49,353 bases of DNA from an uncultured archaeon (GTDB lineage Archaea; Nanobdellota; Nanobdellia; Woesearchaeales; CAIVOO01). The translations under genes were made by a program, and so were the position numbers. This document shows positions 4,448 to 20,230 of the stretch, piece by piece. The stretch lies in the NCBI GenBank assembly GCA_903907555.1, contig CAIVOO010000080.1, positions 1 through 49,353 on the forward strand, given 5' to 3'. Each line of letters opens with the position of its first letter. Positions within the stretch are counted from its first letter, which is position 1. The notes below the pieces were generated by a model, which saw nothing but the letters and a program-made list of their open reading frames with translations, ran no database searches and was not told where the DNA came from.

Positions 4448-4538
4448 TGCTTCGGCCGGGATTTGAACCCGGGTCGGAGCCTTTCTTCGCTTTATGCTCG
4501 AGAGGGCTCCATCCTTGGCCGGTCTAGACTACCGAAGC
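4448..4538 (-). tRNA. tRNA-Glu(CUC) with a 16-nt canonical (37/38) intron
   Basis: Acceptor GCTTCGG/CCGAAGC, anticodon stem GAGCC/GGCTC, loop CTCTCG-[AGCATAAAGCGAAGAA]-A, T arm CCGGG-TTCAAAT-CCCGG. Confidence 0.8.
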
Positions 4539-7592: not shown

Positions 7593-7957
7593 AGAAAGCT
7601 TATGTCAGGACATTGGAAGCTGGGATAGCTGCATTCATAACATTCCTCTTCATAACAATGGTTCTTCCCAAATACGCTCCGTTGACTGAAAAAGCATACG
7701 ACCCGATGATGAACAGCTATGAAGGAAATCCTGATTTCAGGAATTGTGCAATAGACTATAATGTAAGCTGCCTTCAGTCAATTTTCAGGATTTCAGTACC
7801 TCAAAGCATGGAGCTTATTGTTGACATATCAGAAAATCCAAACACGATAAGAGCCAACCTTCCAACGAAAAGAATAAATACTGACTCGCTATTTATACAA
7901 GGTAACTCGACAGATTATGCTCCGAGGATGGTAAAGATTTATGATTATAAGAGGTGA
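7589..7957 (+). CDS. Small pilin-like protein
   Basis: ATGA start/stop overlap with the upstream gene. N-terminus MKKAYVRTLEAGIAAFITFLFITMVL. The track ORF start at 7451 lies inside the upstream gene. Confidence 0.55.
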   Translation: MKKAYVRTLEAGIAAFITFLFITMVLPKYAPLTEKAYDPMMNSYEGNPDFRNCAIDYNVSCLQSIFRISVPQSMELIVDISENPNTIRANLPTKRINTDSLFIQGNSTDYAPRMVKIYDYKR

Positions 7958-7960
7958 AGT

Positions 7961-8227
7961 ATGATCATTACAATAAATACGAAAGAGGACAGCAAGGATG
8001 AAATCAGGAAAATCATCAGCATGCTGCAAAATCTTCTGAACGAGCCAGGAATTGTTGATAGTTCTGCAAGCGGGCTGCCTTCATCCCCTGGAATATTTGG
8101 GCTGTTTGACAATCCTGCTCCTGCAACCAACGACAGTTCATCTCAGCAATCGCCTGTTTTTCCTGAAACAGCAAAGGAAGAAAAGGAAGATGACATAATG
8201 GACCATATAGAGATTTATGAATACTAA
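7961..8227 (+). CDS. Hypothetical acidic protein
   Basis: ORF in the operon context; it begins 4 nt after the previous stop. Confidence 0.5.
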   Translation: MIITINTKEDSKDEIRKIISMLQNLLNEPGIVDSSASGLPSSPGIFGLFDNPAPATNDSSSQQSPVFPETAKEEKEDDIMDHIEIYEY

Positions 8228-14703: not shown

Positions 14704-14847
14704 ATGGCGATAAGTATAGAAAAGATTGGAAACTACGACTTTTACTCAATTGATGGAATAGAAAGAGACAGCGATGACGACGAGATAGACTTCCTGGAAG
14801 AGGGATTCATGAAAGGCTATCTGGAGGCAGACAATATAGACCGCTAG
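14704..14847 (+). CDS. Micro-ORF (47 aa), acidic
   Basis: GGAGGTAAA precedes ATG 14704. The sequence is MAISIEKIGNYDFYSIDGIERDSDDDEIDFLEEGFMKGYLEADNIDR. Confidence 0.45.
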   Translation: MAISIEKIGNYDFYSIDGIERDSDDDEIDFLEEGFMKGYLEADNIDR

Positions 14848-15572: not shown

Positions 15573-16118
15573 ATGCGCATATACAAAGACATCAATGAAA
15601 ATCTTGATGAAATCGCTTTCGAGATAGAATGCGGAGCAGTATTCATCTATCCTACTGACACAATCTACGGCATTGGCTGCAATGCTCTCGATTCTGCTGC
15701 AGTAAAAAAGATTAGAGAAATAAAAAAGCGAGACCAGAAGCCTTTCTCAGTCATTGCACCGAGCAAGGAATGGATTGAAAGGAACTGTGAAATTGACAAG
15801 AAATACCTGAAAAAGCTTCCAGGAAAGTACACATTAATACTAAAAATCAAGAACAAGGAATGCATAGCTCCAGAAGTTTCGAAAGGAAAGCTCGGAGTGA
15901 GAATTCCTAAGCACGAAATCTCAAAATTAGTTGAAAAGCTCGGCTTCCCGATAGTAACTACAAGCGTCAATCTTTCAGGAGAGAATCCAACGACTTCTTT
16001 GAAAACTTTAAAGAAAGAGATAGAAAAGATGGTTGATTTTGCAATAGATGAAGGAAAGCTGGAAGGAAAGCCAAGCAAAGTAATTGATATGACAACCAAG
16101 AAAATCTTGAGAACTTAA
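15573..16118 (+). CDS. tsaC: Threonylcarbamoyl-AMP synthase (YrdC/Sua5 family)
   Basis: FIYPTDTIYGIGCNA, KKRDQKPFSV and TTSVNLSGE motifs. Confidence 0.85.
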   Translation: MRIYKDINENLDEIAFEIECGAVFIYPTDTIYGIGCNALDSAAVKKIREIKKRDQKPFSVIAPSKEWIERNCEIDKKYLKKLPGKYTLILKIKNKECIAPEVSKGKLGVRIPKHEISKLVEKLGFPIVTTSVNLSGENPTTSLKTLKKEIEKMVDFAIDEGKLEGKPSKVIDMTTKKILRT

Positions 16119-16921
16119 GTATTAATTATGTATGTGCAATGGTTGTAGCTTACGTAATCAAGGCTTATCCTTAACTTATTGTAAACCACTTTTGTCTCGC
16201 GATTGTGAAGAGTGAATTTAACATCATTGTTGACGGAAAAATCGCAGTAGAATTGCTTGATGTCAGTTACTGTAACATTGTATCTTACTCCATCTATTAT
16301 TAATTTTTCCGTATCATTCCGCTCAACATCAAAAAATGTCGTGTTTGTTGGCTCCTCGTAATTAATGCCCCAGTGGTAGATGCTTATTTCTGGAGTATAT
16401 TCTTTAGAAACTGACGTGTTATCCTTAATATTGCATTTGATATTTGTATTGTTAACTTTAACCATCCCATTTATCGGTCCTTCGTACATGAAACTCAGCA
16501 ATTTAGAATAATTTTTTCCAGCATAAAGATTAAATTTGTTGTCATTAAATATGATGCCAATCTTTTCCCTAAGAATGTTGCATTCAACAGGCACATTGCC
16601 TAAATTGACAACCCAAAGATAATACTGTGCCCAATCTTCATATGTATCAACGCCAGAAATTTTGCTTCCATTAATATCGCCGTAATAAACACCAACGCTA
16701 AAAACTTGTTTAGGTTCATTGTTTACAGCAGGCGCGCTTGTATTTTCAGGCGCTTGCTTTACTAAAGTTTCATCCTTATCGCATATCTTATTGTCATTTG
16801 CATCAAGACAGCATTCGCTGCCTATCTGCATGTATGGCTTATTGCATAAGAATGATTTTTGCGCTGAGCATGCTGCCAGAATCAGTATTAATAGTGTAAT
16901 CAAAAAGGCTAATTTTTTCAT
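16115..16921 (-). CDS. Secreted lipoprotein-like protein
   Basis: Signal peptide MKKLAFLITLLILILAAC followed by Cys. The mature part is Asn-rich and Cys-containing. Confidence 0.65.
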   Translation of the reverse strand: MKKLAFLITLLILILAACSAQKSFLCNKPYMQIGSECCLDANDNKICDKDETLVKQAPENTSAPAVNNEPKQVFSVGVYYGDINGSKISGVDTYEDWAQYYLWVVNLGNVPVECNILREKIGIIFNDNKFNLYAGKNYSKLLSFMYEGPINGMVKVNNTNIKCNIKDNTSVSKEYTPEISIYHWGINYEEPTNTTFFDVERNDTEKLIIDGVRYNVTVTDIKQFYCDFSVNNDVKFTLHNRETKVVYNKLRISLDYVSYNHCTYIINT

Positions 16922-16960: not shown

Positions 16961-17158
16961 TTACTTGCTTTTTCTAAGTGGTTCATACCCTTGGCAGATT
17001 GTATCATATCCTTTGCATTCAATACAGCTAGAACCTTCAGTATAACCTGTCCACATAGCCTGGTCCTTCTTAAAACACAATACAGGATTGACTACTGGCT
17101 TTATTTGCGCATCTGCGCAAAGCGCGTCAATGCCATTTTTTTCTGCCTCTTTCGGCAA
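16961..17158 (-). CDS. Small Cys-rich protein, apparently co-transcribed downstream of the RSH gene
   Basis: TTG start preceded by GAGGTGAGGGAAGT, located 20 nt after the RSH stop. Six Cys in 65 aa. Confidence 0.4.
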   Translation of the reverse strand: MPKEAEKNGIDALCADAQIKPVVNPVLCFKKDQAMWTGYTEGSSCIECKGYDTICQGYEPLRKSK

Positions 17159-17178
17159 ACTTCCCTCACCTCTGAAAA

Positions 17179-19101
17179 TTATATCTTTCCTAAGTAAACT
17201 TTCTTGACTCCCTGCACCCTCTTGACCCTGTTTATCAAATCCTTAAGGTGCTCTAAATCATCAATCGCAAGCGCAAACCTGCATTCTGCAAGGTCAGGGC
17301 TTATTATTTTCGCATTTGCGCCCTGGACATTTGTTCCGGTGGCTGCGATAGTGTTCAGCACATCTGCGAACAAGCCAACCCTGTCAACTGTTTCAAGAAT
17401 TACCTCGACAGTTCCTACATAATCATTCTTCCATTTTGACTTTACTCTCTTTTGTACAACCCTGCCTTTCTCAAGCGCTTCGCAATCCTGCCTGTGCACA
17501 GTGATTATGTTCGTCTTTCCTTTCAGCCCGATTATGTCTTCCCCAGGCAGAGGGTTGCAGCATTTGCTAAGCCTTATTGTCGGGTTTTCATATTTCTCTG
17601 TGATTATCAGATTCTTTGAAATCTCCTCGCTTTCTGCCTCTACCGGATGATATCTTCTCACAGGCATCTTGCCGGATTCTTGAAGATGCTTTCTTATTTT
17701 CTGCTTTGCCTTGTTTGTCTTGGCTATCTTCATCCAGTTCCTGCTCGGCTTCTGGTTTTTTGAAGTAAGAATTTCAACGACATCGCCTGTCTTGAGCTCT
17801 GTCCTTATTGAAGAGAATGTGCCGTTAATTTTCGCTCCTGTGCATCGGTCCCCAAGATTCGAGTGGACTGCGTAAGCCAGGTCAATCACAGTCGAGCCGC
17901 TTGGCAGTTCGATAACATCGCCTTTCGGAGTGAAAACATAAATCTCATTCCCGAAGAAATCAACTTCCACAGATTCGACAAACTCCTGCGGGCTTGTTGT
18001 GCTCTTCTGCCAGTCCATTATCTGCTTAAGCCAGGAAAGTTTCTTGTCGAATTTTGAATCATCTGTCTTGACGTCCTTGTATTCCCAGTGGGCAGCGACT
18101 CCTTCCTCGGCAATCCTGTCCATTTCAGCAGTCCTTATCTGGATTTCAACAATCTGCCCGCTTTCTGTTATAGCGATTGTGTGCAATGATTGGTACATAT
18201 TGGTTTTCGGCATTGCAATGTAATCCTTGAATCTTCTCGGGATTGGTTTCCACATCCCGTGTATGAGCCCAAGAACTTCATAGCAGTCCTTTACGGATTT
18301 TGTGATTATCCTCATGCCTATGACATCATATATCTCATCAAAATTTCTTTCTTTTCTCTGCATCTTTCTCCAGATGCTGTAAATATCTTTCGCCCTTCCA
18401 TGGATTGCTGCTTCTATGTGTGCGTCTTTCAAGGCATTCTTGACAATTTTCTTGATAATCTCAACCTCTTCCTCACGCTCTTTCTGGTTTTTCTTTATCT
18501 TTTCCTCAATTTCACTGTATTTTTCAGGTTCTAGTATCTTGAATGCCAAATCTTCAAGCTCTGATTTGATTTTGTCTATTCCAAGCCTGTACGCGAGAGG
18601 GGCATAAACATCCATGACTTCTTTCGCAATCCTTATCTGCTTCTCCCTTGGCAGGTAGCCAAGAGTTCGCATGTTATGCAGCTTGTCGCACAACTTTATT
18701 ATGAGAACCCTGATGTCTTTTGCTGTTGCAAAAAGCATTTTTCTTAATGATTCAGCTTGATATTCTTCCCTGCTCTTGGCTTTCAGTTCAGTAATCTTGG
18801 TAACTCCGTCAACAAGCAGGGCAACATCTGCGCCAAAAGCTTTCTTTATGTAATTAACGTCATAATTGGCATCTTCTATGACATCATGAAGAAGCGCTGC
18901 GCAGATAGACTCATCATCCATCTGGAATTCTGCAAGAATATATGCAACATTAAGCGGGTGTTCGATATAAGGCTCCCCGGAAGCCCTCTTGTCATTCTTG
19001 TGGGCTTCTGCAGCAACTTCATAGGCCTTCTCTATAAGCTTGAAGTCTGCATTCTGGTTGTATTCCCTTACCTTCTTGAGAACGTCCTGTATTGTCGTCA
19101 T
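17179..19101 (-). CDS. Long RelA/SpoT homolog (bifunctional (p)ppGpp synthetase/hydrolase architecture)
   Basis: HD domain (HPLNVAYIL...LLHDVIED) and synthetase domain (RAKDIYSIWRKM, MRIITKSV, YQSLHT, EIQIRT, AHWEYK). TGS domain (VFTPKGDVIELP...GDVVEILT) and a C-terminal ACT-like domain. Confidence 0.9.
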   Translation of the reverse strand: MTTIQDVLKKVREYNQNADFKLIEKAYEVAAEAHKNDKRASGEPYIEHPLNVAYILAEFQMDDESICAALLHDVIEDANYDVNYIKKAFGADVALLVDGVTKITELKAKSREEYQAESLRKMLFATAKDIRVLIIKLCDKLHNMRTLGYLPREKQIRIAKEVMDVYAPLAYRLGIDKIKSELEDLAFKILEPEKYSEIEEKIKKNQKEREEEVEIIKKIVKNALKDAHIEAAIHGRAKDIYSIWRKMQRKERNFDEIYDVIGMRIITKSVKDCYEVLGLIHGMWKPIPRRFKDYIAMPKTNMYQSLHTIAITESGQIVEIQIRTAEMDRIAEEGVAAHWEYKDVKTDDSKFDKKLSWLKQIMDWQKSTTSPQEFVESVEVDFFGNEIYVFTPKGDVIELPSGSTVIDLAYAVHSNLGDRCTGAKINGTFSSIRTELKTGDVVEILTSKNQKPSRNWMKIAKTNKAKQKIRKHLQESGKMPVRRYHPVEAESEEISKNLIITEKYENPTIRLSKCCNPLPGEDIIGLKGKTNIITVHRQDCEALEKGRVVQKRVKSKWKNDYVGTVEVILETVDRVGLFADVLNTIAATGTNVQGANAKIISPDLAECRFALAIDDLEHLKDLINRVKRVQGVKKVYLGKI

Positions 19102-19156
19102 GGCAGTTTATAAAGTGAGGCAAATATTTAAATATTCCTAAGCCCGCTCTTCATAT

Positions 19157-20230
19157 ATGGCTCTTTTCAAGGATATGCTGAATAGCGGAGAATCTCTTTT
19201 TGTCAATGAAATAGCTCTGGACTATGATTTCATTCCGAAGGTTGTTCCTTACAGGGAGACGCAGCAGAGATACCTTGCAGCCTGCATAAAACCGCTCCTG
19301 AACCAAAGGAATGGCAGGAACGTCATAATGCTCGGACCGCCTGGCGTAGGAAAGACTGTTGCCTGCAAGCATGTTCTTCAGGAGCTGGAAGAAACAACTG
19401 ATGATGTTATTTTGGTATACATCAACTGCTGGCAGAAGAACACAACATACAAGGTTGTAATCGCGATGTGCGACATCCTTGGCTACAAGTTCACGCAGAA
19501 CAAAAAGACAGAAGAACTGTTTGAAATTGTAAAGAACATGCTCAACAAGAAATCAACAGTTTTTGTTTTTGATGAGATAGACAAGGCAGAAGATTATGAT
19601 TTCCTATACTCGCTTCTTGAAGAGATTTACAGGAAATCAATTTTCCTCATAACAAACTACAAATCCTGGATTGACGAGATGGACGAAAGGATAAGGTCAA
19701 GATTGTTGCCAGACATTCTCGAGTTCAAGCCTTACAATGCAATCGAGACTAAGGGAATATTGCAGGAAAGGGCTGGCTATGCATTTCCGCCAAATGCGTT
19801 CGAGCCTGCTGCATTCGATTTCCTTGCAAAGAAAACTTTTGAAGTAGGAGACATAAGGGCGGGGCTTCACCTGCTGCGCGAGTCCGGGCTGATAGCAGAG
19901 GATTCCAGCTCAAAAAAGATAACTCTGGAGCATGCGCAGAAAGCCTGTTCCAAGCTTCAGACATTCTCAGCAAAAGATACAGAAGAGCTTGATGAAGATT
20001 CAAAAAAAATACTTGAGCTTATCCGAGGAAATTCAGGAAAAAAGATAGGTGACTTGTTCAAGATTTACCAGGAGCTCGGCGGACAGCTTGTTTACAAGTC
20101 TTTCCAAAGAAGAGTTAACAAGCTCGATGAAAACAAATTCATAAAGACAGAGAAGCTTGTCGGCGGAGCCGAGGGGAATACAACAATTCTAAAAATAGCA
20201 ATAGACAAGAAGCTTACAGAGTTTGATTAA
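19157..20230 (+). CDS. Orc1/Cdc6 replication initiator
   Basis: FIPKVVPYRETQ, Walker A GPPGVGKT, Walker B VFVFDEID and a C-terminal winged helix. Confidence 0.9.
   Translation: MALFKDMLNSGESLFVNEIALDYDFIPKVVPYRETQQRYLAACIKPLLNQRNGRNVIMLGPPGVGKTVACKHVLQELEETTDDVILVYINCWQKNTTYKVVIAMCDILGYKFTQNKKTEELFEIVKNMLNKKSTVFVFDEIDKAEDYDFLYSLLEEIYRKSIFLITNYKSWIDEMDERIRSRLLPDILEFKPYNAIETKGILQERAGYAFPPNAFEPAAFDFLAKKTFEVGDIRAGLHLLRESGLIAEDSSSKKITLEHAQKACSKLQTFSAKDTEELDEDSKKILELIRGNSGKKIGDLFKIYQELGGQLVYKSFQRRVNKLDENKFIKTEKLVGGAEGNTTILKIAIDKKLTEFD

Follow-up and report, generated by a model that had tools for sequence, protein, structure and literature searches.

A native long RelA/SpoT homologue of the Rel type, lacking a full alpha-helical domain, in a Woesearchaeales archaeon, and the orphan reading frame behind it

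This study concerns a gene for a long RelA/SpoT homologue (RSH) and its surroundings on contig CAIVOO010000080.1 of an uncultured archaeon of the order Woesearchaeales (GenBank assembly GCA_903907555.1), with "the window" denoting the whole stretch of 49,353 nucleotides (nt) that was analyzed. The source genome measures 1.18 Mb and is 98% complete. The RSH gene occupies positions 17179..19101 on the reverse strand, ends in a TAA stop codon and encodes a protein of 640 amino acids (aa), and its assignment to the Rel type draws on the open reading frame (ORF), on Pfam, on the NCBIfam model TIGR00691 (spoT_relA) and on alignment with Bacillus subtilis Rel (structure 6yxa). TIGR00691 matches the protein with 727.5 bits versus a cut-off of 499.2 (660 bits, also over the cut-off, in the genome search), and the more specific equivalog models remain below their cut-offs, at 549 versus 947 bits for SpoT and 427 versus 728 bits for RelA. 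Identity to any other known sequence is at most 62%. The initial annotation of this DNA had proposed a 640-aa RSH with HD, synthetase, TGS and ACT-like domains, which Pfam and TIGR00691 bear out, and the motifs it had named are present (LLHDVIED at aa 70–77, YQSLHT at aa 303–308, EIQIRT at aa 319–324 and AHWEYK at aa 337–342). Judged by its sequence, the 640-aa ORF belongs genuinely to the long RelA/SpoT homologues, and among these to the bifunctional Rel type.

The protein opens with an HD hydrolase domain (aa 26–175, 18577..19026, on the reverse strand as are all domains of this protein; Pfam HD_4, E = 3e-49), in which R39, H48, H72-D73, E76-D77, D139 and N143, comprising the metal ligands and the catalytic ED pair, are all present, with the ligands and the pair aligning to those of 6yxa. 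Across 65 members of the archaeal RSH clade described below these positions are kept in at least 90% of the proteins, except D77, at 62%. The (p)ppGpp synthetase domain (aa 235–343, 18073..18399; Pfam RelA_SpoT, E = 6e-44) contains G235-R236-A-K238, K246, D259, Y303, H307, E319 and Q321, together with the Y303-H307, E319-T324 and H338-K342 stretches, and none of the residues R236, K238, K246, D259, Y303, H307, E319 and Q321 varies among the 65 clade members. Its charge motif reads RFKD (aa 290–293). RXKD is the form found in bifunctional Rel/SpoT and EXDD that of RelA, and the motif separates the two types.

The C-terminal half comprises a TGS domain (aa 387–446, 17764..17943; Pfam PF02824, E = 4e-22), a zinc-finger or RIS domain (aa 499–544, 17470..17607; C514, C515, H536 and C540, with matches to PF19296 and PF28438) and an ACT/RRM domain (aa 551–637, 17191..17451; Pfam ACT_4 at aa 564–636, E = 3e-14). 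In the CCHC zinc finger C515, H536 and C540 are invariant across the clade, and C514 is kept in 64 of its 65 members. An AlphaFold2 model of the 640-aa protein was built on the 65 clade sequences and has a predicted local distance difference test score (pLDDT) of 82. All three C-terminal domains fold in this model, TGS as a beta-grasp fold (pLDDT 81–91) and ACT/RRM as a beta-alpha-beta-beta-alpha-beta fold (pLDDT around 90), and its catalytic half superposes on Staphylococcus aureus Rel (7oiw) with a template-modeling (TM) score of 0.95 and a root-mean-square deviation of 1.8 Å. With phmmer, aa 3–476 align to B. subtilis Rel 6yxa at 51% identity (E = 9e-161), all motifs being matched. Degeneration of both catalytic domains, named in the initial annotation as grounds for giving up its reading, was looked for, and all catalytic motifs checked proved intact. 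The residue conservation across the 65 clade proteins therefore indicates that purifying selection acts on the two catalytic sites as well as on the regulatory C-terminus, and the view that both catalytic domains look functional is supported.

Elsewhere in the clade, HD residues are degenerate in 8 of the 65 members (P0057, P0124, P0125, P0128, P0131, P0144, P0157 and P0230, listed under archaeal RSH clade A1), about 12 of the 65 carry an ExDD-like motif, and one genome (G163) holds two long RSH genes, which suggests a RelA/SpoT-like sub-functionalisation inside the archaea. The degenerate HD domains and ExDD-like motifs would be in keeping with a drift of the window protein as well, either to a single activity, as hydrolase or synthetase only, or to another nucleotide such as (p)ppApp, but as neither the HD set nor the synthetase residues have lost a member in this protein, and RFKD is retained, we consider such a drift unlikely.

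Set beside the Rel proteins of Bacillota (B. subtilis 6yxa, 6htq and 8acu, S. aureus 7oiw and RelSeq 1vj7), the window protein shows the same order of HD, synthetase, TGS, zinc-finger and ACT/RRM domains and shares all catalytic motifs as well as RXKD, but it is some 80–95 residues shorter, with the alpha-helical (AH) domain reduced to two short helices and a disordered linker, and its host is an archaeon with archaeal ribosomes. Escherichia coli RelA (5iqr, 5kpv) and SpoT (7qpr) belong to the same superfamily and do not differ in the types of their C-terminal domains. The hydrolase of RelA is dead and its charge motif is EXDD, unlike the window protein with its intact HD domain and RFKD.

The AH remnant, delimited by alignment and by the AlphaFold2 model, spans aa 447–498 (17608..17763, reverse strand). 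Here some 60–70 residues of bacterial Rel are missing, window aa 478–498 standing opposite aa 494–592 of Bacillus badius Rel in the alignment. The main gap amounts to 42 bacterial-consensus columns, about 60 in total when the smaller gaps are counted, and these are absent from 75 of the 75 archaeal-clade rows in our alignment. In the model two short helices (aa 454–475) are followed by a disordered stretch (aa 480–495, pLDDT below 50) before the zinc finger, and the match to PF19296, which covers part of that model only, is sub-threshold at 20.7 versus 23.8 bits. The window protein thus has no full AH domain between TGS and zinc finger. Such a domain is typical of bacterial Rel and RelA, yet lies outside the family definition. 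In length the archaeal-clade proteins measure 618–663 aa, versus about 710–740 aa for bacterial Rel, and the loss of most of the AH domain across the whole clade is the least ordinary feature of the gene.

The same region is missing in bacterial Rel proteins of 655–685 aa at loci of Spirochaetota metagenome-assembled genomes (MAGs; L020, L021, L023, L026 and L062), and further short bacterial Rel proteins are P0147, P0150, P0158, P0162, P0164, P0166, P0170, P0171, P0184 and P0214. Archaea are therefore not alone in this loss. In L021, L023, L026, L062, P0147, P0150 and P0166 the AH domain is deleted at the same place as in the archaeal proteins, without robust kinship to the archaeal clade. 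The short bacterial forms are scattered across the bacterial tree, and AH loss therefore looks recurrent in bacteria.

The flanks of the gene are archaeal, as the initial annotation had stated. An Orc1/Cdc6-like AAA+ gene (19157..20230, forward strand; Pfam Cdc6_lid and AAA_22) is the divergent neighbor, separated from the RSH gene by 55 nt (spacer 19102–19156), and archaeal uS2 and Sec61-beta genes follow further on, with RtcB also near the locus. The RSH family is overwhelmingly bacterial, and the gene has a GC content of 0.432 versus 0.393 for all genes in the window, both of which would fit a gene that reached this genome recently by horizontal transfer, or else a piece of a bacterial contig that binning or chimeric assembly had wrongly placed in an archaeal MAG. 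The GC excess over the RSH gene is mild (z = 1.8) and is shared by the Orc1 gene. Both archaeal flanks lie on the same contig as the RSH gene, and the assembly of another sample contains a contig that matches this one at 99.95% identity over 7.9 kb, keeps the order of the genes and encodes an identical RSH protein, its four differences all falling inside a lipoprotein-like gene. Tetranucleotide distances in 2-kb windows over the RSH gene are normal for the window (z below 1), the nearest relatives are orthologues in archaeal genomes of the same family with the same Orc1 neighbor, and closed single-contig relatives carry the gene. The chimeric assembly that the initial annotation had warned of has left no sign in either the independent contig or the composition, which together make chimerism and recent import very unlikely; we regard the odds of such an event as minute, and this explanation as effectively refuted already.

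Two further claims of the initial annotation concerned distribution and origin, namely that long RSHs are rare in archaea and that this archaeon may have acquired its own from a bacterial donor. The first holds for classical surveys, in which archaea were listed as being without long RSHs (Atkinson et al. 2011, PMC3153485), but is outdated for DPANN archaea: Li et al. 2021 (mSystems, PMC8407392) predicted a bacterial origin for RelA/SpoT, with the family recorded in 41.7% of Woesearchaeota, 69% of Diapherotrites and 21% of Pacearchaeota. Those proteins and ours belong to the same lineage and gene family, and the 41.7% of Woesearchaeota given there compares with 44% of the phylum here, the TIGR00691 cut-off being exceeded in 132 of 301 genomes in an even sample, all at least 90% complete and with closed genomes included. 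RSH was found in six of six genomes of the window's family and in about half of 40 relatives, among them closed single-contig genomes. Presence and predicted transfer are given by Li et al. 2021; the clade-wide AH loss, the residue conservation and the synteny come from the present analysis.

The RSH phylogeny that the initial annotation had suggested was then constructed. In a FastTree phylogeny of 300 rows all 75 short archaeal-type sequences, which include ten cut from genomes of the window's order, form one clade with a support of 99. An IQ-TREE analysis of 97 rows under LG+C20 with posterior mean site frequencies gives the archaeal split at 99 and clusters the window's family (f1) at 98, and the split holds at 89 when only the columns of the N-terminal domains and TGS are used. 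A monophyletic archaeal clade (support 89–99) argues against acquisition by this archaeon itself, as do the 132 of 301 genomes, the six of six family members, the synteny and the composition, whereas the bacterial source stands and an ultimately bacterial origin of the RSH is supported. Short Rel proteins of Spirochaetota were considered as donor or sister group; a Shimodaira–Hasegawa-like approximate likelihood ratio of 88 in the full-length IQ-TREE analysis was lost both in FastTree and in the tree of N-terminal domains and TGS, leaving this candidate unsupported. Monophyly, distribution, family synteny and native composition together point to one old transfer from bacteria to archaea, then vertical descent with patchy loss; the gene would have entered an ancestor of this DPANN class once, long ago, and would have been inherited vertically since. 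The RSH gene is intact and native, an added member of a known and already published group, so that the finding is largely ordinary and this particular gene adds little to the published record.

Two observations on related proteins were made in the course of these searches. Several genomes of the order without a long RSH contain stand-alone HD-only homologues of about 190–230 aa that resemble small alarmone hydrolases, with E values from 1e-23 to 1e-42 (G040:C2:71994-72380, G037:C3:21478-21885, G048:C3:63090-63542, G083:C19:11572-12069, G095:C4:101170-101670 and G254:C2:367937-368389). Elsewhere in the source genome, a 330-aa ORF (G000:C8:249-1241, L002) gives a sub-threshold RelA_SpoT match of 18.6 bits over aa 158–221, and this ORF may encode a divergent nucleotidyltransferase or a protein like the small alarmone synthetases.

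Orc1/Cdc6 adjoins RSH in four relatives of the window's family (G002, G003, G004 and G006) and lies about 450 nt from it in G022. A general functional linkage of the two genes was considered and dropped: adjacency is confined to family f1 (with the nearby arrangement in G022), and at least 20 other genomes have the two genes separated by more than 20 kb or placed on different contigs. Midway in the 55-nt spacer lies a palindromic TATA-like element, AATATTTAAATATT (19123..19136, not assigned to a strand), some 22–35 nt from both divergent ATG codons, that of RSH and that of the Orc1/Cdc6-like gene, and its core, ATATTTA(A/T)ATATTT, is conserved in position in L004, L006 and L007, three relatives from the family. 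Most window genes have a TATA element at −35 to −25 (about −30) and are leaderless, with no Shine–Dalgarno (SD) sequence, the few SD-led starts following other genes. AATATTTAAATATT probably serves both genes as a bidirectional promoter, each of the two mRNAs being leaderless.

Downstream of RSH, the window carries as a lineage-specific insertion a gene for a 268-aa secreted or lipoprotein-like protein with its own TATA element (16115..16921, reverse strand). The first 65 or so residues of this protein hold a signal peptide, a lipobox-like Cys and a Cys-rich CC..D.N.N.IC motif; this N-terminal stretch, the only part recurring in the order, heads many otherwise unrelated proteins in 28 of 121 order genomes, with up to seven copies in G028, and looks like a shared secretion or anchoring module. 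In the family relatives the place downstream of RSH is taken by a convergent gene for an acidic protein of 86–111 aa, with a Pfam TRASH/zf-FCS zinc finger for the G006 copy, and then by what we take to be a seryl-tRNA-synthetase-like gene. A 47-aa acidic ORF in the window (14704–14847, forward strand) resembles, with a tblastn E value of about 5e-4, the acidic part of this protein in relatives where it measures 96–111 aa (L004:3426-3761, reverse strand) and ends in a C-terminal TRASH/zf-FCS finger (Pfam zf-FCS, E = 3e-6). This acidic copy is without the finger and lies about 2.3 kb away, and the region downstream of RSH has therefore been rearranged in the window's lineage. At a distance from the locus, ARAGORN reports a 91-nt tRNA-like gene (4448–4538, reverse strand) with an undetermined two-base anticodon and without an Rfam call, which may be an intron-containing tRNA.

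Between RSH and the lipoprotein-like gene lies a 65-codon ORF, known from the ORF list, with a TTG start (16961..17158, reverse strand). The TTG lies 20 nt after the RSH stop codon and follows at 7 nt an SD-like GAGGTGA (17166..17172, reverse strand, read from the sequence), all as described in the initial annotation, which had further counted six Cys and presented the product as a Cys-rich micro-protein coupled to the RSH. We count five Cys, in the pattern C-x13-C-x16-C-x2-C-x6-C, which matches no known zinc ribbon. If the ORF encoded a real micro-protein, coupled to the RSH in translation and modulating it, this would account for the SD-like sequence and its spacing, for the short distance between stop and start and for a codon score of 0.20 per codon, above the 5th percentile of real gene windows (0.33 ± 0.10), but also within the 95th percentile of spurious frames (0.216). 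GAGGTGA occurs four times in the window versus 4.3 times expected by chance, and the motif alone therefore proves nothing; three of the four sites are found just upstream of candidate small ORFs, which would again suit a coupled gene. One of these sites (7951–7957) directly precedes an 89-codon open frame (7958–8224, forward strand) that has a gene-like codon score of 0.27 and is without a Pfam family; this frame is probably a real SD-led small gene in a pilin-like cluster.

Searches for relatives of the 65-aa product speak against such a modulator. Neither Pfam nor NCBIfam has a family for it, a word-index search of 5.8 billion proteins gave no homologue, and scanning 200 genomes of the order in all six frames returned no credible match, the best per-genome E value being 1e-3, in an unrelated 458-aa frame. 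Atlas features likewise contain no homologue (best 0.79). Tblastn against 12 related loci found no match downstream of RSH in L004–L014, and among the ORFs listed downstream of related RSHs the 65-aa ORF is absent from all ten loci with downstream sequence, a TRASH gene or others being found instead. On the independent contig the ORF was not called as a gene. The homologue beside other RSH genes for which the initial annotation had proposed a search has thus not been found, and the ORF does not stand as a conserved RSH companion. Three other identities were also considered and rejected. As a relic of the TRASH/zf-FCS acidic protein, the ORF shows no more than 7 of 18 identities with a BLASTP E value of 0.13, and hence no similarity; the 257-nt spacer, viewed as a structured RNA, has a fold z of 0.00 and no Rfam match; and a link with the lipoprotein-like gene is not seen, the homologues of that gene sharing only the N-terminal signal and Cys module of about 65 aa. 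The 65-codon ORF has about an even chance of being translated and a slim one of acting as a functional partner to the RSH, a coupled modulator of the enzyme being correspondingly improbable. The ORF is not part of a conserved RSH module, and would best be described as a lineage-specific orphan, whether a micro-gene of recent origin with an SD-led start or a frame that arose by chance in a spacer that has undergone rearrangement.

We thus arrive at an overall explanation, to which we give a probability of roughly 80%, of a Rel enzyme that goes back to one old transfer and is followed by an orphan ORF. The architecture, residue conservation, phylogeny, distribution and synteny are observed here; enzymatic activities, regulation and promoter function are proposed. 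By analogy with known Rel, RelA and SpoT proteins, the HD domain would be Mn-dependent and hydrolyze (p)ppGpp, and the synthetase domain would make (p)ppGpp by moving pyrophosphate from ATP onto GDP or GTP. The C-terminal module of TGS, zinc finger and ACT/RRM would switch the enzyme between hydrolysis and synthesis, and in the window's family the gene has its place beside Orc1/Cdc6. Three points weigh against this explanation. With the AH domain lost, the protein could have ceased to dock on ribosomes; archaea have only some of the targets that (p)ppGpp acts on in bacteria; and the 65-codon ORF, with a consensus SD at the correct spacing and a codon score in the lower range of real genes, has a real chance of being translated.

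The AH loss bears directly on how the enzyme would be controlled. Since most of the domain is lost in the archaeal clade, any coupling to ribosome and uncharged tRNA that is retained must have a different geometry. With the shortened linker, TGS may still be able to hold the CCA end of the tRNA on an archaeal ribosome while zinc finger and RRM hold the A-site finger. The enzyme may instead be active without the ribosome, its TGS, zinc-finger and ACT/RRM domains no longer sensing uncharged A-site tRNA and serving only as an autoinhibitory or ligand-sensing switch, for instance by binding amino acids or nucleotides. The absence of the AH core from 75 of 75 archaeal-clade rows and the predicted disorder of the linker (aa 480–495) are consistent with this, and the repeated loss of the same region in bacterial lineages indicates that the domain is dispensable in some settings. 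However, TGS, the CCHC zinc finger and ACT/RRM are all strongly conserved in the clade, and in bacterial complexes such as 5iqr, 5kpv and 6htq these are the domains that bind tRNA and rRNA. We therefore treat off-ribosome action as a tentative proposal. With comparable reserve we put forward that the archaeal Rel clade, though AH-less, functions as a stringent factor, which in DPANN archaea would both produce (p)ppGpp and break it down, would sense starvation on archaeal ribosomes via TGS, zinc finger, RRM and a remodeled linker, and in the window's family would be co-expressed with Orc1/Cdc6 from the shared palindromic promoter.

As to what these results mean, the micro-protein, the new element of the initial annotation, fails as a conserved feature. 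The RSH itself, a conserved and catalytic-looking Rel in about 44% of one DPANN phylum, offers a concrete protein with which to test the use of alarmones by archaea, and its clade could show how a ribosome-docking bacterial factor was adapted to archaeal ribosomes after loss of a helical domain. Should the working stringent factor prove true, it would be the first alarmone signaling shown in the domain Archaea.

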